Source: Candidatus Magasanikiibacteriota bacterium (GTDB taxonomy: Bacteria; Patescibacteriota; Patescibacteriia; Magasanikbacterales; GWA2-37-8). From it: a stretch of 64,000 nucleotides of DNA. Positions 7,379 to 26,690 of this stretch are shown one piece after another. Location of the stretch: NCBI GenBank assembly GCA_036744835.1, contig DAIOHD010000001.1:208967-272966 (forward strand), written 5' to 3'. The notes below the pieces were generated by a model. It was not told where the DNA came from, ran no database searches, and saw nothing but the letters and a program-made list of their open reading frames with translations. The translations under genes were made by a program, and so were the position numbers. The stretch's first letter is position 1, and each line of letters begins with the position of its first letter.

Positions 7379-7777
7379 ATGTCAGAAGAAAAAAATGTAG
7401 TTGTTCCTGAAAAGTTTCAATCTTTGGTGGAACAAATTGAAAAATTGTCTGTCTTGGATTTAGCCGAATTGGTTAAAGTCTTAGAAGAAAAATTTGGTGT
7501 TTCTGCTGCTGCTCCAGCTATGATGATGGCCGCTGCCCCAGTTGCCGCTGCTGCTGCTGAAGAAAAAAGCGAATTTAATGTTGAATTAACTAGCTGCGGT
7601 GATAACAAAATCAATGTTATCAAAGCTGTAAAAGAAATTACTGGTTTAGGTCTTGCTGAAGCCAAAGCTTTGGTTGACGCTGCTCCCAAAGTAATTAAAG
7701 AAGGTGTTAAAACTGCCGAAGCTGAAGAAATGAAAAAGAAAATTGAAGAAGCTGGTGGTAAAGTAGAATTGAAATAA
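7379..7777 (+). CDS. rplL: Ribosomal protein L7/L12
   Basis: Ala/Pro hinge plus conserved C-terminal domain ([24 protein letters not shown]...[21 protein letters not shown]). Confidence 0.9.
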
Positions 7778-7793
7778 ATAATTTCGATTAAAT

Positions 7794-7861
7794 AAAAAAA
7801 TCGCCCGTAAGGGCGATTTTTTTATTTAAAAAATACGCCACTTTTTAGGTGGCGTTTTTTT
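7794..7861. terminator. Tandem bidirectional intrinsic terminators between rplL and the convergent purC-E
   Basis: TCGCCC-GTAA-GGGCGA plus T-run, and ACGCCAC-loop-GTGGCGT plus T-run; A-runs on the other side serve the minus strand. Confidence 0.65.
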
Positions 7862-7881
7862 AAGGGTTAAATAACACTTTT

Positions 7882-16953: not shown

Positions 16954-18329
16954 TGTCGATTCGTAATTTCGTATTATTTCGTAAGTTCGTACGTAATTTA
17001 TTTATGTCTCGTGATTTAATCTCACAACTCAAAAATCTCAAACATAAAGATATCACTCCCAGTGATGCGTGGTTGAAGCAAAACCGCGGTATTTTGTTAT
17101 CTCAAATCAAAAACAATGCCGTGTCCAATGCTCATACTTCTTATGAAAATTTTTGGATTGCAATGTCCGTGTTTTTTGGTGAAAAAATGATTTTAAATGT
17201 AGTAAAACCCCTATCTATTCTTTTGATAGTCACTATGGTCGGAACTTCTGGTTGGATAGCTACTGTGGATGCTGCTTACGAAAGTTTACCCGGAGACATA
17301 TTATATGGAGCCAAAAGAGTGGTAGAAAAAACCCAGATTACTACCGCTTCGGTTTTGGGTAATAAAGATACTGAAACTAAACTTCATTCTGAATTTGCCA
17401 AACGTCGCGCCAATGAAATAAAAAAAGTTTCTGTTAGTGATGATCCGAAAAAAACCGAAAGAGTTGTAGAAACAGTAAAAGATTTAAAAAATGAGATGAA
17501 TAATTTGAGTGATAAATTGGAAGGAAGCAAACAAGTTAGTTTAGCGGCCAACACTCTCAAAGAAGTAAAGAAAAATACGGATCAGATTAAAAGCGTTTTG
17601 ACCGAAGTAAAAGATGACCTATCTCTTGTAGCGACTTCAACAGTAGATAAAAATACAGTAGAAGTTATTTCGCAAGCCAAAGACATGGTAAAAGATGTAG
17701 CGGTTAAAACCGTTGAAGCGGTGGTAAGTAAACATCTAGAAGGTGACGTTAGTGTTAGTACGGATGAAATCAAAAAAATGTTAAACGAAACTGTTACTGA
17801 AACTATCAATGAAACCTTGGTTAAAACCGGTAATTTGGTGGGGGTAAATAATATTGTTGAAGCGGTTAAAACAGAAATTAAAGTTCTTGATAGTGCCAGT
17901 TCTACTGCTTTTTCTACAACCAGCTCAGCTGATTTGGCGCAACAAATAGAAAATATAGCCAGCACTACCAAGCAAGCTGCGTTACAAACTCAGGAAATTA
18001 TCAAAGATTCCGATAAAAAGACCGATGAATTACAATCAATGTTAAATAGCGGAGATTTGGCCGGAGTTTTAAATATGGTAAAGGAAGTAAACGAAGTAAA
18101 TAAAACCGTGGAGAAAATTATTGATACGGCGGTTGGCAGTGTTCAATTGGCTTTGCCTCCGGTAGTCAGTGTGGTAAAAGAAAAAACCGAAGCCGGAATC
18201 AGTGTTACTTCAACAGCGGATGTAAAAGTGATAGTGACGAGCACTCCGACGGCTTCAACGACTATCATAGTAACAACTACCCCGGTTAATACGTCTACTA
18301 CGGTAGAGACAAGCACACTTAAAAAATAA
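16953..18329 (+). CDS. Putative anti-sigma factor: short cytoplasmic N-terminus, one TM, long extracytoplasmic coiled-coil / S-T-rich domain
   Basis: Start overlaps the sigma-gene stop (translational coupling); topology typical of ECF anti-sigma partners. Confidence 0.45.
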   Translation: MSIRNFVLFRKFVRNLFMSRDLISQLKNLKHKDITPSDAWLKQNRGILLSQIKNNAVSNAHTSYENFWIAMSVFFGEKMILNVVKPLSILLIVTMVGTSGWIATVDAAYESLPGDILYGAKRVVEKTQITTASVLGNKDTETKLHSEFAKRRANEIKKVSVSDDPKKTERVVETVKDLKNEMNNLSDKLEGSKQVSLAANTLKEVKKNTDQIKSVLTEVKDDLSLVATSTVDKNTVEVISQAKDMVKDVAVKTVEAVVSKHLEGDVSVSTDEIKKMLNETVTETINETLVKTGNLVGVNNIVEAVKTEIKVLDSASSTAFSTTSSADLAQQIENIASTTKQAALQTQEIIKDSDKKTDELQSMLNSGDLAGVLNMVKEVNEVNKTVEKIIDTAVGSVQLALPPVVSVVKEKTEAGISVTSTADVKVIVTSTPTASTTIIVTTTPVNTSTTVETSTLKK

Positions 18330-18703: not shown

Positions 18704-21700
18704 ATGAACTTGAAGAAAATTTTTACCATGGGCGTAGTAATGACAACCATCGTGTGGTCATTAGGCGTTGCCACTTTGGTTCCTTCTGTAGCTAATGCTA
18801 TGGATTCTACCTGTCCAACTTTAGTTGCAGGTGACATGATCAAAGTTACTGGCAAACCAGCTATCTATGCTCTTGATAACAACTTGAATTATCGCTATTT
18901 TCCAGATGGTGATGTGTTCAAATCCTGGAACGCTGATGAAGCTTATGGTGCATACTATAAGTCCATCACCCAAGCTTGTTTTGACAGCTTGGCTCAACCT
19001 GCCGCAGCTCCATACCATGTTTTCTATCGCTCCGGTTCTTACCTCGTTAAGTACCTAAGCTCTGATACATTGTATGTTGTTTCTTTAAACAACAAATTGA
19101 TTCCTATCACTGATGCTGCAGCAAAAGCTATTTTTGGCACCAATTATACTTTCAAAACAATTGGTTTGTCTGAATGGCCTCTATATACCAAAGATACCAC
19201 CACTATCACTGAAGCTACCGTTTATCCTGGTATGCTCGTGAAATCTGGCAGTATCAATTATTTTGTTGATGAAGGTAAAGTGTTACGCGAAGTTACTGCC
19301 GAAGGCATGACCGCTAACCGTTTCAAAGCTGCTTTTGTTCGCACCGTTTCTGTTTCTGGTTTGACAACTGGTGCTACTATCAGCTCTGAAGTTACTTCTT
19401 TGACAAAAAGAGTTGGTGATTCCGGTACTCCTGGAACCACCCCAGCTCCAACAACTAACGTAACTGTTAGCTTGGCTGCTGATACCCCAGCTTCTATGAC
19501 TGTTCCTGGTGGCTCTACCAATGTTACAATGTTGAAATTCAACGTTAATGGCAGTGGTATTGTTAATCAGATCATTTTGAAAAGAAATGGCATTGGTTCA
19601 AATTCTGATTTGACCAATGTTTATCTTTACAGCGGTACCACTCGTTTAACCAGTGGTCGTACTATCGCTTCCGATACCAACACTGTTACTTTTGGTAGTT
19701 TGAACATCAGCTTACCAGCTACTTTGACTGCTGTAGGTGATTTCACAATTGCTGGTGGTAATAATGGTAACCAAAGCGGATTGTCTGTTGTAAAAGTAAA
19801 TACTGTTGACATTAATAATGTAAATGGTAATTATTTCTCTCTTAACACCAATGCTACCGCTTCCGCTGTTACTATTGATGATATCTCTGGTAATTGGGAA
19901 GTAACATTGGGTTCAACTGGAGCTGATCTTGCTAAATTTAAAGTTGTTGCTGGCGTTAATGATATTAACGTAAGCAGAATCGTATTACGTCAAGGCGGCG
20001 CTTTGGCTAATACAAATTTAGCTAATCTCAAATTGTATGTTGGTTCCACTTTATTGGCAACTGCCAGCAATTTGGTTGGTGAAAAATTGATTTTCAATTT
20101 GATTACTCCTTATACTATCGCCAAAAGTCAAACCAAGAACTTCACTGTTACTGGTGACTTGACTGGTGGTCGTACAACCGACAATGTTAAATTCTATGTT
20201 GACGAAGTTACCGATTTATATGTAGTTGATTCTATGTATAATGTTGGTGCTCGTGTCACAAACAGCTGGGCTCTTGGCGATCAAATCGTCAATATGGCCG
20301 GTGGTCAAATCACCTTGGCTGATAACGGTCCTGCTGCTTCCACTATTGCAGTTAATACTACCAATAACAACTTGCTTAAAGTTAATGTTTCTTCTGAAAG
20401 AAACGTAACTGTTAAAAAAGTTAAATTGACTATTAATGTAGGTGGAGCTTTTGCTTATCCTGGTGATGTTACTGACATCAAGAATGTTAAATTAGTTGAT
20501 ACCGATACAGGTTATACCTTGGTTGGTCCAGCTGATCTAAGTTCTTTTACTGATGCTAATCCAGTATTTACAAAAGAATTTACTGATTCTTTTGATTTAA
20601 CAGCTGGCACTGTCAGACACTTGGCTATCCAAGCTGATTTTGATACAGCTCTTACTGATCTTGCTACTATTAAAGCTACTTTGGACTTAAGCGGTGCTAA
20701 TTATCTTTATGATAATGATGCTTCCGAATACATGGCTAGCAGTAAAATCGTTCCGTCCACTTTGGTCGGTAAAGATATGACTGCTTCCACTGCTTCGGTT
20801 ACTATTACAAAAACTGCTACTCCAAACAACTCTACTCAAGTAAAAGGCAACAAAGATGTTAGTGCTCTTGGTATTAGTTTCTCTGCCGGTACAGCTCAAG
20901 ATCTCAAACTTAACAAAGTTGTTTTAGCCGTTTATGGCAACTCAGCTACAAATAATTGGGGTACTGTTTCTGGTGATACTGATGCTAATACTTTGGTTGA
21001 ATCCATTTCTTTATGGGATGGTTCCACTCAAGTTGGTGTAACTAGATCTCTTACTTTGGTAGATAACGATGCTAGTGGTGCTTTTACCGCTGGTGATTGG
21101 TACAAAGCAGAATTCAACAATCTCAGCCTCGTACTTAATAAAGGTGCTAATAAACAGTTGATTGCTAAAATAAATTTACGCAATACTTTTACTGGTACTA
21201 AGTACATTGCTGTTGATGCTGACAAAGCTTTGTTGGAAATTGAAAATGCAGAAGGCAACATTTTGACTGGTTTAACCGGTAAATTAAATGGAACTACAAC
21301 AAAACTTCCTTTAATTACTGCTGTTCAAACTGGTACATTAACTGCTGCTGTAGATGGAAATACTCCAACTACTGGAATGATTTTGACTGGTGCTAGCAAT
21401 ATTGTTTACACCACATATCGTTTCAATGCATCTGATGAAGCCTTCACTATCGTTGGTGCAAAGATCGTTAATAGCGATCCTACCAAAGATGCTACCTTCA
21501 ATAAAATTACTTTGGAATACAAGAATGAAGCTGGTTCTACTGTCACTAAAGAAGGATATCTTTCTGCCGGTGCTTTGACCTTCTCTGATGGTCAAATGGA
21601 TCTCTTTGTTCCTGCTAACACCAACGCTATATTGACAATTAAAGCTGACCTCAACAAAGCTGATGATGCTGGTACTTGGGGCAATGCTTTGAAAATTGGT

Positions 21701-22339
21701 TTGGAGAAATCTGCTAACCAATTCGGTGCTTCCGCTAACTTGACAGATGCCTTTATCGCTATTGGTAAAGCTTCTGGTGCAAAAGTTTACGGCAACACCA
21801 ACAATATTACTTTGGTAGATTCCACAGTAAACGCTAAAACAGCTCGTAAAACTAATATTATCGTAGCTAACGCTAAAACCGATGGCGCTTCTTCTCAGAA
21901 GATTAACGATAATGTTGGTACTTATACCTTCACTTCCGAAGCAGAAGTTGGCAGCAACCAGAATTCTACTGTAACTGCCGTTACTGTTGCTTTGAGTGGT
22001 AGTATGATTACTGCTGGAGGAGATAATTTAGTAACTGTAAACGTATACGACAGCCCAAGCTTTGGTGCTGAATCCTTAATGGGTCAAGCCGCTTTGCCTG
22101 TAGCTGGAGGTGCTATTACTGGTGCTATTACTTTAACAACTCGCAATGAATTTAACGGTGTAAAAACCCTTTACTTCGTTGTAGATTCTACTGATGTCAA
22201 CTTAACTCCTGGTACAACTGGTACCAAGACTTTGGGTTCTCAAATTACTACATTCACTTGGAATGACGGTAAGGCTACTGGTATCACTCCAGTTTCCGGA
22301 GTACCTGTTGTTGGCGCTACAATGTCTTACAGCCTATAA
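18704..22339 (+). CDS. Giant secreted/surface protein (1211 aa), T/S/N/V/G-rich beta-repeat protein, S-layer or adhesin-like
   Basis: Signal peptide MNLKKIFTMGVVMTTIVWSLGVATLVPSVANA; repetitive beta-rich composition; no cytoplasmic-enzyme motifs. Confidence 0.5.
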   Translation: MNLKKIFTMGVVMTTIVWSLGVATLVPSVANAMDSTCPTLVAGDMIKVTGKPAIYALDNNLNYRYFPDGDVFKSWNADEAYGAYYKSITQACFDSLAQPAAAPYHVFYRSGSYLVKYLSSDTLYVVSLNNKLIPITDAAAKAIFGTNYTFKTIGLSEWPLYTKDTTTITEATVYPGMLVKSGSINYFVDEGKVLREVTAEGMTANRFKAAFVRTVSVSGLTTGATISSEVTSLTKRVGDSGTPGTTPAPTTNVTVSLAADTPASMTVPGGSTNVTMLKFNVNGSGIVNQIILKRNGIGSNSDLTNVYLYSGTTRLTSGRTIASDTNTVTFGSLNISLPATLTAVGDFTIAGGNNGNQSGLSVVKVNTVDINNVNGNYFSLNTNATASAVTIDDISGNWEVTLGSTGADLAKFKVVAGVNDINVSRIVLRQGGALANTNLANLKLYVGSTLLATASNLVGEKLIFNLITPYTIAKSQTKNFTVTGDLTGGRTTDNVKFYVDEVTDLYVVDSMYNVGARVTNSWALGDQIVNMAGGQITLADNGPAASTIAVNTTNNNLLKVNVSSERNVTVKKVKLTINVGGAFAYPGDVTDIKNVKLVDTDTGYTLVGPADLSSFTDANPVFTKEFTDSFDLTAGTVRHLAIQADFDTALTDLATIKATLDLSGANYLYDNDASEYMASSKIVPSTLVGKDMTASTASVTITKTATPNNSTQVKGNKDVSALGISFSAGTAQDLKLNKVVLAVYGNSATNNWGTVSGDTDANTLVESISLWDGSTQVGVTRSLTLVDNDASGAFTAGDWYKAEFNNLSLVLNKGANKQLIAKINLRNTFTGTKYIAVDADKALLEIENAEGNILTGLTGKLNGTTTKLPLITAVQTGTLTAAVDGNTPTTGMILTGASNIVYTTYRFNASDEAFTIVGAKIVNSDPTKDATFNKITLEYKNEAGSTVTKEGYLSAGALTFSDGQMDLFVPANTNAILTIKADLNKADDAGTWGNALKIGLEKSANQFGASANLTDAFIAIGKASGAKVYGNTNNITLVDSTVNAKTARKTNIIVANAKTDGASSQKINDNVGTYTFTSEAEVGSNQNSTVTAVTVALSGSMITAGGDNLVTVNVYDSPSFGAESLMGQAALPVAGGAITGAITLTTRNEFNGVKTLYFVVDSTDVNLTPGTTGTKTLGSQITTFTWNDGKATGITPVSGVPVVGATMSYSL

Positions 22340-22370
22340 TCATTTAGGTTAATAAGATAAAGTAAAACAA

Positions 22371-22450
22371 AACCCCGCCTAAAAGGCGGGGTTTTGTTAT
22401 ATATGCAAGCCCCTCATCTGCGTGCAGGTGAGGGGGCGGGGTTTTGTTTT
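22371..22450 (+). terminator. Two consecutive intrinsic terminators after the giant surface gene
   Basis: AACCCCGCC-TAAAA-GGCGGGGTT plus T-run, then CCCCTCA-(nested hairpin)-TGAGGGG followed by GCGGGGTTTTGTTTTT. Confidence 0.65.
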
Positions 22451-22765
22451 TGATGTTTTTTTACTTTCTCAAAAATCAAAAATAGTGTAGAATATACATA
22501 ATCAATCTTTAAATCTTGCAATCTTGTAATCTTTAAATTTTTTAATATTATGAATTTAAAAGAAAAATTTTACATAACGTTGAGTTTTGTGCTCGTCGTT
22601 TTTTTTATTTTTGCTGACCTTTATCTTTACCGTTATTATTATCAAGTAAAAACATCTCCGGTTTTACAAATGGATATTTCAGCGGTGTATGAGAAGTATG
22701 TGGAGGGGATAAAATAAAATCGTATATCGTATAACGTGTATCGTATTTCACATACTATATACGAT

Positions 22766-23342
22766 ATACTAAATACTATATACTAAATATTATTTAAATA
22801 TGTCTAAAACTACTAAACTCATTTTACTTATCAACAGCGGGATCATCCTAGTTCTTTTGGTCATCGGCGGATATCTTTGGTTCGCTCAATCCCAGCTCTT
22901 TGTCAAAGCAGGTTTAGCGGAAAGCAAATTCCCTTATAAACTTTATACCGCTTTTGAACTCCAAGGTATGTATTCTCAAGAACCTCTAGAGAATGTGAAA
23001 ACAACCCAAACACCGGAGCAAACCCATGCGTTATTTATTTCCGCTTTGCGAAAAGGGGATATAGACGGAGCAGTGGAGTGTTGTGTATTGAAAGTAGATA
23101 AAGAAAAGATGAGAGAAAAATTAAACAGAATTAAAGACGCGGATAATTTTATGTTGATGGTGAAAGATATTTCCACCGCTGATTTTTCTTATAATAAAGA
23201 TTTAGAAAAAGAATCAAGAATAAATATTGAATTTTATGGTATTGAAAAGGATAAAAAAATTGGAGCGCTGATGACTTTCCAAAAAAATCTTGATGGTATT
23301 TGGATGATAGAATCTTTTTGATAAGTATATAGTATTTAGTAT
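22766..23342. repeat. Perfect 19-bp inverted repeats flanking the 22800-23321 ORF
   Basis: ATACTAAATACTATATACT at 22766-22784 and AGTATATAGTATTTAGTAT at 23324-23342 are exact reverse complements. Confidence 0.6.
22800..23321 (+). CDS. Hypothetical membrane-anchored protein (173 aa)
   Basis: N-terminal TM/signal anchor (LILLINSGIILVLLVIGGYLWF); no recognizable family. Confidence 0.35.
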   Translation: MSKTTKLILLINSGIILVLLVIGGYLWFAQSQLFVKAGLAESKFPYKLYTAFELQGMYSQEPLENVKTTQTPEQTHALFISALRKGDIDGAVECCVLKVDKEKMREKLNRIKDADNFMLMVKDISTADFSYNKDLEKESRINIEFYGIEKDKKIGALMTFQKNLDGIWMIESF

Positions 23343-23365
23343 TAAGTATTAAGTATTTTAATATT

Positions 23366-26300
23366 ATGCACAGGAGGGGAAAGTTTTTATTTTTCGCAGG
23401 GCTTATGTTTGCTCTGTTTTTTAATCTACAAAATGTATTTGCTTATGACCACAGTATTGCTCATCCGGGAATAGCTGATTTAGCGGTAAAACTTTATAAC
23501 AGTCAAAATGAAATACAAATTACGGCCCAACAAGTGGAATATATTTTACAAGGATCCAATAATGAAGATTCTCCTGTCCGCTGGTTTAACCATTTTTATG
23601 ATCCGATTTATAATATTGGGTTTAGTGATTTCGTATTTGGAGAAAAACTGGGTATTTTCCCGACCGCACCAGTTTGGCTACAAAGTCCTTATGATCAAAT
23701 ACAGTATTCAGTCGGCGATAGGAGTTGGCAAAGAGCGATAGATGATTACGCTCGTGGAGATGAAGAAAAAGCATTCTTGGGATTAGGACACGCTATCCAT
23801 CTGATATCAGACATGTCCGTACCCGCGCACACTCGCAACAGTGCTCATCCGGGAGATTCATACGAAAGTTTTGTTAAAAGTAATTGGAGTAGTATTGCCC
23901 CAAATCTCAATTATGAATTTAGAGAAATAAATAGCTTACAACAAGCTTTTACAGATTTAGCAAATTATTCCAATAATAATTTTTATTCTGACAGAACTAT
24001 TAAAAACAATAAATATAGCATTGTAAATATAATTGAAAATAATTTAATACAAAATAACAACGGCTTATTTTATAGATATTATTTTTCTAAAATAAACAAT
24101 AAACAATATAAAATTTTTGTAAATAAAAATCCTTTAAAATGGAACGATGAAGAAATTTATGAGCTTGATGATTATTTAGTACTAACCGACTATTCTCAAA
24201 CCCTCATCCCCCAAGCTGTTTCCTACAGCTCTGGTTTGATAAAATTATTTTTACAAGAAGCAGAAGCCAAAAAATCTCAATTACAATATGAAAAAATGTC
24301 TTGGTGGCAAAAAATTAATAATGTATTATTTAACGATGATTTGCCGATAGTTCGTCAAACTGTAGAAGGGTATGTAATGGAAAAAACTCTGGCCCCAGCT
24401 ATTGAATTTGGTGGAGATGTTTTGGATAAAGCCAAAGAAATCAAAGAAACAGTTGAAAAAATTGCGCAAAAAAATCAAGAACCAGAAGTTTATGAAAAAA
24501 TTATACCTGAAGCCAAAGCGGAAGAAGAAAAAACAATAATTATATCATCTACAACATTTACAACACCCACAACACTTATAACAACTACAACATCTTATTA
24601 TTCCAGTGGGGGAGGGTCATCTTATGTTCCACCAACTGTGGAACCTACTACCACACCTGAAATCAACCTTGATTTAGAAACCCCATCCCCGGAACTTTTT
24701 TTGGAATTATTTCAAACCACTACTAGTAATTTTATCACCTTGAATTTTAGCTCCAGCGAAACCTCGTCGCTACCTGTGAGTTTTGAGGGGAAACATAGCA
24801 CTTCTACTTTTTGGAATTCGCTTTTTTCTTGGACTACGTCTACGTTATATATTTTTGAAACAAATAAGAGTGGAGAATATAATTTTCGAGTGCGTGCGAT
24901 TGACGGTGTTTATAATACTTCTACTTGGACAGAAATGTCTGTCACTGTGCCACAAAGAGAGTGCATTTATAGCTATTTAACCGGGGAACAAGAAGATGAT
25001 GAGGTTGTTCTGACTCCGGATAGCAGTCCTTATCTTTTAGATTATTATTATGTATCACCCGGAAAGAAATTGATAATAGAACCTGGGACAGTAATAAAAA
25101 GTTTATCTTATGAGGATGGCGAAAATATTTTTGCTTACGCCAATTTGGATGTAGCCGGAGAATTGGAGATATTGGGCACTTCGGAAAATAAAGTGATTTT
25201 TACTTCTGTTTATGACAATAGTTTTGAAAATGAATGTTTAAATACGTTATCTTTGGCCACTTCAAGCGAACAGGTAATGGGCGGAATTTTGATAGGAGTT
25301 TTTGATACTACTGTTGATTTGAAAAATTTTGAGATGAGACAGTTTGATAGACCGCAACCCCATGTTCAGTTAGCTTCTTTTGGTGGTTTTTATAATGATT
25401 ATATTTATCCTACCAATGAATGTATTATTGTTGAAAATTCGGCTATAAATATTACCGGTGCTGTTTTTAAAGGATGCGGGGGAGAAGGAGCATTACAAAT
25501 AAAAAATTCGCAAGTTACGATAAAAAATAGCCAAATAATATCCGATTTAAACGCTTATGATAATGGTGTGGTAGTAGAAGGGGGCGATTTATTTTTGGAT
25601 ACAGTAAAAATAAGCGGTTATCGTGAATATCCTTTAAAAATTTTAGCGGAAGCAAATTTTCAGTTTATTGATTTATCTTTGGAAAATAATAGAGTTAATG
25701 CTATTTTAAACCCTGAGTTAAAAGGTGATTTAAATTTAAAAAAAGATGAAAATTTTTGGGTTTTAAATAGAGATATTTTGAATAGTTTGTCTTCGTTTAC
25801 AGTTGATCCTGGGGCAAGTTTTTATTATGAAGGAATGGATGGTATATCTTCTAACAAAAATCTATCTCTCATCGGTACGCCAGAAGATAGGATTAAAATA
25901 TATTTACCAAATATTTATGAAAGCGCCATGTCATTTAACGGTACAACAAATATTTTTAAATACGTGGATTTTGTCGGTTTGGAGCCCTATCTAAATACCG
26001 GATTGAAAGATTCATACGGAGTAGAAAATTCTTGGGGCTTAGTTTTGTCGGATTCTTACAGAAGAGAAATTTTAAATTTTAGCAAAAGACGTAGTCAGGG
26101 TTTGATAATCAGAAATGGCAATCTTGTTTTAGAAAATGTCAGATTTTTTAATAGTTTTATTCCGTGGTCTGTCGCTTTGAATTTATATAATTCTACTAGT
26201 TCTTTAAAAGAAGTTTCTTTTATTACGATTAAGCCTTATGGAGAAATTTTTTATTTGGAAGAAGCGGAAAATTTGGGTATTAACGGAGACGGCGGAATTG

Positions 26301-26518
26301 TTGATTTGGATAATGTGAATTTTGCTGATTTGTTTTGTGGTATTCATTCCGATCCGGATTATTATTATGGTTTGATAAAAACCGTAACTACCAACATGTC
26401 GGCAGGTAATTTTGAAAATGTTATTTATAATTTTGTGCCTGAAGATTTGATAATTTTTTCAGTGCCGGAGGAAGAAGTGACCTCAACACCAGAGGGTGAA
26501 GGTGGCTTGGTGGAGTAG
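23366..26518 (+). CDS. Giant secreted protein (1050 aa): zinc phospholipase-C/P1-nuclease-superfamily N-terminal domain, T/S/P linker, C-terminal beta-helix-like region
   Basis: Signal peptide; NHFYDP and HAIHLISDMSVPAH match the Zn-PLC/P1 blocks (HFWDPD and HxxxDMTxPLH); linker TTFTTPTTLITTTTSYYSSGGG. Confidence 0.55.
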   Translation: MHRRGKFLFFAGLMFALFFNLQNVFAYDHSIAHPGIADLAVKLYNSQNEIQITAQQVEYILQGSNNEDSPVRWFNHFYDPIYNIGFSDFVFGEKLGIFPTAPVWLQSPYDQIQYSVGDRSWQRAIDDYARGDEEKAFLGLGHAIHLISDMSVPAHTRNSAHPGDSYESFVKSNWSSIAPNLNYEFREINSLQQAFTDLANYSNNNFYSDRTIKNNKYSIVNIIENNLIQNNNGLFYRYYFSKINNKQYKIFVNKNPLKWNDEEIYELDDYLVLTDYSQTLIPQAVSYSSGLIKLFLQEAEAKKSQLQYEKMSWWQKINNVLFNDDLPIVRQTVEGYVMEKTLAPAIEFGGDVLDKAKEIKETVEKIAQKNQEPEVYEKIIPEAKAEEEKTIIISSTTFTTPTTLITTTTSYYSSGGGSSYVPPTVEPTTTPEINLDLETPSPELFLELFQTTTSNFITLNFSSSETSSLPVSFEGKHSTSTFWNSLFSWTTSTLYIFETNKSGEYNFRVRAIDGVYNTSTWTEMSVTVPQRECIYSYLTGEQEDDEVVLTPDSSPYLLDYYYVSPGKKLIIEPGTVIKSLSYEDGENIFAYANLDVAGELEILGTSENKVIFTSVYDNSFENECLNTLSLATSSEQVMGGILIGVFDTTVDLKNFEMRQFDRPQPHVQLASFGGFYNDYIYPTNECIIVENSAINITGAVFKGCGGEGALQIKNSQVTIKNSQIISDLNAYDNGVVVEGGDLFLDTVKISGYREYPLKILAEANFQFIDLSLENNRVNAILNPELKGDLNLKKDENFWVLNRDILNSLSSFTVDPGASFYYEGMDGISSNKNLSLIGTPEDRIKIYLPNIYESAMSFNGTTNIFKYVDFVGLEPYLNTGLKDSYGVENSWGLVLSDSYRREILNFSKRRSQGLIIRNGNLVLENVRFFNSFIPWSVALNLYNSTSSLKEVSFITIKPYGEIFYLEEAENLGINGDGGIVDLDNVNFADLFCGIHSDPDYYYGLIKTVTTNMSAGNFENVIYNFVPEDLIIFSVPEEEVTSTPEGEGGLVE

Positions 26519-26526
26519 TTTTTATC

Positions 26527-26690
26527 CCCCTCTCTTATTCAAGAGAGGGGCGAGGGGAGAGTCTAAATCCCTCCCTCTGCCCGAGAGGGAGGTTAGGAGG
26601 GAGCGGGAGAGACTCCACCCTAACCCTCCTCTTAAACAAGAGGAGGGAACTTCCCCTCTCTTATTTAAGAGAGGGGTGAGGGGAGAGTCT
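26527..26690. repeat. Array of five GC-rich polypyrimidine/polypurine hairpins (two identical 38-bp units)
   Basis: CCCCTCTCTT-ATTC-AAGAGAGGGG at 26527-26550 and CCCCTCTCTT-ATTT-AAGAGAGGGG at 26653-26676, plus CCTCCCTC/GAGGGAGG, GGAG-AGA-CTCC and CCCTCCTCTT-AAAC-AAGAGGAGGG between them. ORF 26496-26699 is an artefact of this repeat. Confidence 0.55.

Follow-up and report, generated by a model that had tools for sequence, protein, structure and literature searches.

A secreted phospholipase C-fold protein and its predicted membrane partner form a conserved gene pair in Patescibacteria

The closest described systems to the locus treated here are the zinc-dependent phospholipases C (PLC; PF00882), for which PC-PLC of Bacillus cereus (1AH7), the N-terminal domain of Clostridium alpha-toxin (1CA1/1OLP) and Listeria PlcB (8CQM) served as comparators, and the S1/P1 nucleases (PF02265), for which P1 nuclease, S1 nuclease (5FB9), SmNuc1 (8QJL) and the plant ENDO2 (3W52) were used. 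The locus lies in a 64,000-nucleotide stretch of the genome of a Candidatus Magasanikiibacteriota bacterium (contig DAIOHD010000001.1, positions 208,967 to 272,966; hereafter the window), a member of the Patescibacteria or Candidate Phyla Radiation (CPR). It consists of an open reading frame (ORF; 23366..26518, on the plus strand, as are all features below unless stated) coding for a secreted protein of 1050 amino acids (aa), with the gene of a small putative membrane partner directly upstream.

Patescibacteria account for much of bacterial diversity and generally lack lipid and nucleotide synthesis, and the way in which they obtain lipids and nucleotides from other cells is largely unexplained. 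A sequence-only reading of the window had recognized in the first ~300 aa of the protein the zinc site shared by PLC and S1/P1 nucleases, and had suggested a host-scavenging factor. In the present analysis profile, fold and ligand conservation all agree on such a site, and the N-terminal domain is placed, as a remote member, in the zinc PLC/P1 superfamily, with PF00882 as its nearest family. It represents a large PLC-fold branch, found so far in Patescibacteria only, which forms a conserved two-gene module.

The N-terminal domain and its proposed zinc ligands

The start codon of the 1050-aa protein is supported by 11 full-length orthologues (45-62% identity), all of which open with MxRRG and a hydrophobic segment. 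The signal peptide expected from the first reading was borne out: residues 1-26 (MHRRGKFLFFAGLMFALFFNLQNVFA, 23366..23443) read as a Sec signal peptide with predicted cleavage before Tyr27, and the pattern of the site is kept across 193 relatives with complete N-termini, where the canonical signal-peptidase I site has A, C, S or G at position -1 in 185 and V, A, S, I, T, G or L at position -3 in 192, and where all 193 possess a hydrophobic h-region. Past the signal peptide no transmembrane (TM) segment and no LPXTG motif was found in the protein.

The zinc PLC-fold catalytic domain was assigned to residues 27-312 (23444..24301) by profile, fold and ligand alignment. The query alone gave only sub-threshold matches in Pfam and NCBIfam and a single weak match in the PDB, to Listeria PLC, therefore a family profile was needed to test the motif match. 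In the PDB the profile built for this purpose (A1) from 34 diverse mature N-domains of the family matched B. cereus PLC (E=1e-5) and Clostridium alpha-toxin (3e-3), and no nuclease was among its matches there. When the 34 relatives were compared with Pfam, 28 matched PF00882 at E<1 (best 2.8e-9) and S1/P1 was matched once, weakly; NCBIfam returned nothing meaningful for them, and PF00882 was already precomputed for four listed relatives (P0029, P0051, P0053, P0063). The AlphaFold model of residues 27-312 (predicted local distance difference test, pLDDT, 94.4; predicted template modelling score 0.92) has an all-alpha fold superimposable on PC-PLC and on the alpha-toxin N-domain, and in a Foldseek search with it all 17 matches at E<=0.011 were zinc PLCs, the best nuclease appearing at E=4.7. 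Membership of the S1/P1 nuclease family (PF02265) was rejected on fold and profile grounds.

Alignment by hhalign (95.7% probability) pairs seven residues of the query with seven zinc ligands of B. cereus PLC: His33 (23462-23464) with His14, Asp68 (23567-23569) with Asp55, His76 (23591-23593) with His69, His145 (23798-23800) with His118, Asp149 (23810-23812) with Asp122, His155 (23828-23830) with His128 and Glu167 (23864-23866) with Glu146. Residues 87-155 of the PLC sequence used for this comparison match the printed PDB chain, and the ligand numbering is consistent. Each of these seven proposed ligands is kept in 119-120 of 120 homologues of 30-60% identity, and the conserved set includes the predicted general-base Asp. 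Both motifs from which the zinc site had originally been recognized were placed correctly: NHFYDP occupies residues 75-80 (23588..23605) and holds His76, the residue aligned with PLC His69, and HAIHLISDMSVPAH (residues 142-155, 23789-23830) forms the beginning of HAIHLISDMSVPAHTRNSAH (residues 142-161, 23789..23848), in which His145, Asp149 and His155 are accompanied by the family-specific His142, Arg157 and His161.

A further proposed ligand, Tyr27 (23444-23446), is the mature N-terminus that follows the signal-peptidase site. In the 193 relatives the mature +1 residue is aromatic without exception (Tyr in 187, Trp in 5, Phe in 1), and in a scan of 1.84 billion representatives almost all of the top 150 matches have an N-domain that starts at residue ~25-35. 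By analogy, Tyr27 would be the counterpart of PLC Trp1, the amino and carbonyl groups of which bind zinc. The domain is described here as a putatively competent phosphodiesterase of the PLC branch, with metal binding and catalysis presumed to follow those of PLC. Another family-specific motif, YSNNNFYSDRT (residues 201-211, 23966..23998), is 80-100% conserved in the 120 homologues; in the hhalign alignment residues 201-211 have no counterpart in B. cereus PLC, and the motif may line the active-site cleft.

The partner gene, the family and its C-terminal modules

The partner gene (22800..23321, 173 aa) ends 44 bp upstream of the gene of the PLC-fold protein. In its product a short basic N-terminus is followed by one TM helix and by a predicted extracytoplasmic domain of ~130 aa. 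A small ORF stood directly upstream in every locus inspected at first, and these ORFs turned out to be homologous. The pairing was then assessed systematically in 84 loci, 82 of which contain an enzyme gene with enough upstream sequence, and in 79 of these 82 a partner homologue stands directly upstream on the same strand, with gaps mostly of -22 to +60 bp; in L076, one of the three exceptions, the partner is present with a larger apparent overlap. The TM helix was found in 82 of 87 members of the partner family, and the topology should be N-in/C-out, with the domain facing outward. Similarity to described domains is faint: DUF4878 was matched by 14 of 44 partner members, weakly (best 8.6e-5), though not by the window copy, and a partner profile gave no significant match in the PDB, where only hits of E>0.1, SnoaL-like proteins included, were obtained. 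The partner may thus be called weakly NTF2-like/DUF4878. Its database relatives are all unnamed stand-alone 'hypothetical' proteins of 130-210 aa.

The same 22-nt overlap of the partner and enzyme ORFs recurs in 12 of the loci listed (L003, L049, L052, L054, L058, L060, L063, L065, L070, L074, L078, L082), which suggests translational coupling. In L001 a 98-aa GIY-YIG ORF (7595-7891 of that locus) stands between partner and enzyme, and the same 485-bp gap is found in L007; this ORF looks like the insertion of a small mobile endonuclease.

A database search returned 166 relatives, and all 120 of those listed share residues ~1-310 at their own N-termini. At E<=1e-3 the A1 profile collected 7566 cluster representatives (clusters of 50% identity), of which 5192 remain at E<=1e-10, and it found at least 549 loci among species-representative genomes. 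All records with a credible taxon name belong to Patescibacteria, the named sources being Magasanik-, Falkow-, Azam-, Terry-, Vogel-, Lloyd- and Taylor-bacteria, Paceibacterota and Minisyncoccia. About 30 third-party annotation assemblies (L008, L010, L014, L015, L018, L020 and others) are titled 'uncultured Gammaproteobacteria' or 'Saccharibacteria'; these titles are probably unreliable, because gene content and similarity look Patescibacteria-like. The family carries no public name other than 'hypothetical protein' or 'lamin tail domain-containing protein', and literature searches retrieved no publication describing it.

What follows the catalytic head differs among relatives. A Pfam-detectable beta-helix was found in 12 of 55 and an fn3 domain in 7 of 55, and further relatives carry lectin or propeller domains. 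Across thousands of relatives the catalytic head and the partner are the only parts common to all architectures, therefore it is most probably the catalytic domain on which the partner acts, be it as an inhibitor for self-protection, as a tether or as a product acceptor.

In the window protein the long C-terminal helix of the N-domain model continues into a charged helical linker (residues 313-390, 24302..24535; 22% D+E, 14% K+R), which is conserved among the 11 orthologues. The Thr/Ser/Pro-rich linker noticed in the first reading follows at residues ~391-440 (24536..24685); this low-complexity segment contains 56% S+T+P, and orthologues differ in its length and sequence. The beta-helix of about 600 aa that had been expected behind it was recovered in part: a right-handed parallel beta-helix of ~500 aa is modelled at residues ~531-1030 (24956..26455), but an immunoglobulin (Ig)-like beta-sandwich comes first (residues ~441-530, 24686..24955), with strands throughout in the AlphaFold2 model at pLDDT 55-76 and with weak Y_Y_Y and OmpL47-type barrel matches. 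The model of residues 436-1036 reached pLDDT 79, with the sandwich at modest confidence, and was built on a shallow alignment of 9 sequences, which gives it moderate confidence as a whole. Only 5 proteins were retrieved when homologues of the C-terminal 610 aa were sought, and the beta-helix part is restricted to about a dozen orthologues. The protein ends in an acidic tail (EEEVTSTPEGEGGLVE and the stop codon, 26456..26518), which has no TM segment and no LPXTG motif. The extreme C-terminus, acidic and conserved as TSTxxxE[DG]xLVE in most orthologues, shows no hydrophobic anchor, and the tail might be a sorting or interaction tag.

Possible mechanism and substrates

The analysis shows directly the PLC-type fold, the conservation of the ligands, the signal for secretion, the order of the domains and the pairing of the genes; metal binding, catalysis, the substrate, the role of the partner and the link to a host are conclusions drawn from them. 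On this basis we tentatively propose a picture, whose chance of being right in whole we put a little short of even, of a secreted modular PLC-fold enzyme with phospholipid head groups as substrate and with the partner acting on its head. Signal-peptide cleavage would expose Tyr27 as the N-terminus of an all-alpha PLC-fold domain of ~285 aa, in which the amino and carbonyl groups of Tyr27 together with His33, Asp68, His76, His145, Asp149, His155, His161 and Glu167 would bind three zinc ions, and these, by inference from PLC, would activate a water molecule for the cut of a phosphodiester bond. The flexible helical and Thr/Ser-rich linker would tie this head to the Ig-like domain and the ~500-aa beta-helix, which most likely attaches to a polymer on the surface of the target cell. 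The enzyme would be made together with the small partner, and the latter would sit anchored in the producer's membrane with its domain outward and act on the head in one of the ways named above. As substrate, the head-group phosphodiester of membrane phospholipids in a neighbouring (host) cell is the best guess; its cleavage would provide diacylglycerol to a bacterium in which lipid synthesis is probably lacking. The interpretation given in the sequence-only reading is supported in part, with the host-scavenging role a presumption.

Phospholipid is favoured because the N-domain falls in the PLC branch by every measure, because the last ligand is Glu, as in PLC, and because an outward-facing membrane partner fits self-protection or product hand-over with a membrane-directed enzyme. 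A further reason is that members of the CPR reportedly recycle lipids from other bacteria (PMC8080830).

Several observations weigh against this picture. The host association of the organism is assumed from knowledge of its phylum. The query alone scores 14.5 bits against Zn_dep_PLPC (PF00882; residues 123-170), where the cut-off is 26.8. PLC His142, which stands four residues before the Glu ligand, has no aligned His in the family. A candidate for the ninth ligand is His161 (23846-23848), placed by its conservation (119 of 120) and by its fixed distance of six residues past His155; in the window protein it stands six residues before Glu167, and the loop between His161 and Glu167 is of variable length across homologues. 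Thus, of a nine-ligand site, seven members are given by alignment and Tyr27 by the signal-peptidase site, whereas PLC His142 is unaligned and its presumed substitute is assigned by position. With His161 counted the ligand set appears complete, and the motif likeness persisted in the profile search.

Other points concern the substrate more closely. The choline-binding residues of B. cereus PLC (Glu4, Tyr56 and Phe66) are not clearly conserved here, and the family-specific polar residues E67, R72, H142, R157 and YSNNNF, 80-100% conserved in homologues, suggest that the substrate is anionic or more polar. A lamin-tail domain follows the head in 45 of 55 relatives; the catalytic domain is fused to a staphylococcal nuclease in 3 of 55 and to a ComEA-like helix-hairpin-helix DNA-binding module in one. 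Co-directional envelope-glycan genes recur near the module in about a quarter to a third of the loci.

Part of this evidence can be read in favour of an extracellular nuclease or nucleotide-scavenging phosphodiesterase, which would act S1/P1-like on single-stranded DNA or RNA or on 3'-phosphomonoesters and which the partner would only tether. Such an enzyme would supply nucleotides to an organism unable to make them, and we regard it as unlikely, although it is the rival that survives best. The staphylococcal nuclease, helix-hairpin-helix and lamin-tail fusions among relatives speak for it, as do details near the N-terminus, namely a first His close to residue 1 and an Arg after the Asp ligand, both of them P1-like; the profile and fold matches, on the other side, are those to PLCs described above. 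The lamin-tail domain occurs in extracellular nucleases too (PMC6085458).

Somewhat less likely again is an envelope phosphodiesterase whose target, on the surface of the producer or of the host, would be a glycopolymer with phosphodiester links or a lipid-linked glycan (teichoic-acid-like, or polyprenyl-phosphate-linked sugars), with the beta-helix binding the glycan chain. The gene neighbourhoods point in this direction, since a co-directional gene for a Wzy_C/O-antigen-ligase-like protein with TPR occurs in 19 loci (immediately downstream in ~10), an NAD-epimerase gene in 18 (immediately upstream of the partner in ~8), and UDP-glucose dehydrogenase and glycosyltransferase families GT2 and GT4 recur as co-directional neighbours; the window itself holds two GT4 genes ~4.4-6.8 kb downstream. 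Beta-helix domains are typical glycan-binding or glycan-cleaving modules, and many conserved Asn, Ser, Thr and Arg residues, besides the polar residues E67, R72, H142, R157 and YSNNNF, are family-specific. However, the glycan neighbours are present in just that quarter to third of the loci and are not immediately adjacent in the window, and the beta-helix is absent from many members (Pfam-detected in the 12 of 55 mentioned above). To our knowledge no member of the PLC/P1 superfamily acts on phospho-glycopolymers or lipid-linked glycans.

Returning to phospholipids, the pair could also be imagined as a two-component lipid-harvesting device, in which the head cuts host phospholipids and the partner captures diacylglycerol or shields the producer's own membrane, an idea that we consider rather improbable in this form. 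Beta-helix or lamin-tail modules would place the PLC-fold head on the target cell, and the NTF2-like partner would feed the captured lipid into the symbiont's membrane. A non-catalytic surface adhesin, with the PLC-like domain as a degenerate relic used for binding, was rejected and is very improbable indeed: the sub-threshold Pfam score of the query and the resemblance of the Ig-like domain and beta-helix to an adhesin or passenger domain would agree with it, but the candidate ligands, with the general-base Asp, and the aromatic N-terminus are conserved to the extent given above, a pattern that indicates purifying selection on an active site.

A putative three-zinc phosphodiesterase head distantly related to membrane-attacking bacterial toxins defines here a family of more than 5000 clusters. 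The pair is conserved, widespread and easily expressed, hence a direct handle on whether lipids or nucleic acids are scavenged, and a testable candidate for how Patescibacteria attack or harvest from other cells. If true, a lipid-harvesting pair would explain how bacteria without lipid synthesis build their membranes.

Surrounding DNA and comparison with described systems

A third conserved gene was sought in the loci, and no neighbour was found in more than ~25% of them, therefore the conserved unit consists of two genes. The transcription unit in the window probably extends over ~22.5-26.55 kb, because a strong terminator hairpin (22363-22401), after an upstream gene for a secreted protein, precedes it and hairpin repeats lie past the stop codon of the enzyme gene. 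The upstream protein (18704..22339, 1211 aa) has a signal peptide and no Pfam match; secreted relatives of ~1130 aa sit upstream of the module in 12 loci, and it is possibly a surface protein that functions together with the module. Further upstream stand the gene of an ECF-type (extracytoplasmic function) sigma factor and that of a DUF5667 protein (16327..18329), in an order that also precedes the module in L001. In this relative, 62% identical, the whole succession of ECF sigma factor, DUF5667 protein, large secreted protein, partner, enzyme and serine hydroxymethyltransferase (SHMT) is kept. The DUF5667 protein is a likely anti-sigma factor, and the two may regulate the surface-protein cluster. 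Upstream of the partner gene a mini-ORF of 55 aa (22550..22717) codes for one hydrophobic helix and shares TTTTAATATTATG around the start codon with the enzyme gene; homologues were found in L006 only, besides the identical L002, and a similar-looking 55-aa ORF at the corresponding place in L001 was missed by the search.

Two kinds of repeats were observed around these genes. A tandem heptamer, (ATACTNN)n, has 11 matches by motif count, against 0.11 expected by chance, and these fall in three intergenic sites only: 16061-16143, 22752-22797 (+) and 23325-23356 (-). The last two flank the partner ORF with an exact 18-mer, ATACTAAATACTATATAC, inverted on either side of it within a 38-nt inverted repeat of 82% complementarity; the other site lies in the divergent promoter region of the ECF sigma gene. 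The repeat may serve this locus and the sigma/anti-sigma operon as a common operator, or may mark the ends of an invertible segment. As a conserved regulatory feature it was rejected, being present in this genome only among the 84 loci (the identical L002 aside), and it is species-specific. A G+C-rich palindrome of 38 nt, beginning with CCCCTCTCTTATTYAAGAGAGGGG, stands in two 95%-identical copies (26527-26564 and 26653-26690), both in the 250 bp that separate the enzyme gene from the convergent SHMT gene; these may be terminator hairpins or a repeat of the repetitive extragenic palindromic type. All Rfam matches in the region were below gathering scores and located on hairpins.

Compared with described systems, the C-terminal region shares 7-16% identity with beta-helix passenger, tailspike and pectate-lyase domains, occurs in about a dozen orthologues, and displayed no detectable catalytic signature of any lyase or hydrolase family in its beta-helix. 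The tight adjacency of an enzyme gene and a gene for a small, outward-exposed membrane protein recalls the Tle-Tli pairs of the type VI secretion system (T6SS), although the enzyme folds are others and export is by Sec instead of T6SS; the analogy is one of logic and not of descent, and by it the pair may work like a membrane-damaging lipase or phospholipase effector with an extracytoplasmic immunity protein encoded beside it. The combination of a secreted phosphoesterase with a lamin-tail domain, seen in 45 of the 55 relatives, is that of ExeM/NucH of Shewanella, and this bacterial architecture was noted by Mans et al., as cited in PMC6085458. The catalytic domain of ExeM, however, is of the endonuclease/exonuclease/phosphatase type and not of the PLC fold, and the window protein itself is without a lamin-tail domain.

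With the S1/P1 nucleases the family shares the superfamily, the predicted three-zinc chemistry and an N-terminal aromatic ligand. From the zinc PLCs, with which identity is 14-22% and for which the query stays below the Pfam cut-off, it differs in having Tyr instead of Trp at position 1, a spacing of 6 and not 13 to the first His, and a displaced counterpart of His142, for which His161, six residues past His155, is the candidate. A three-stranded sheet is inserted at mature residues ~198-227, the C-terminal helix is long, and E67, R72, H142, R157 and YSNNNF are strongly conserved in addition. The PLCs stand alone or with a PLAT domain, whereas members of this family are fused to lamin-tail, Ig-like or beta-helix modules, possess an obligate small membrane partner gene and come, where credibly named, from Patescibacteria. 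Marked by Tyr1 and by the shifted candidate for the ninth ligand, the family forms a separate branch of a classic metalloenzyme superfamily.

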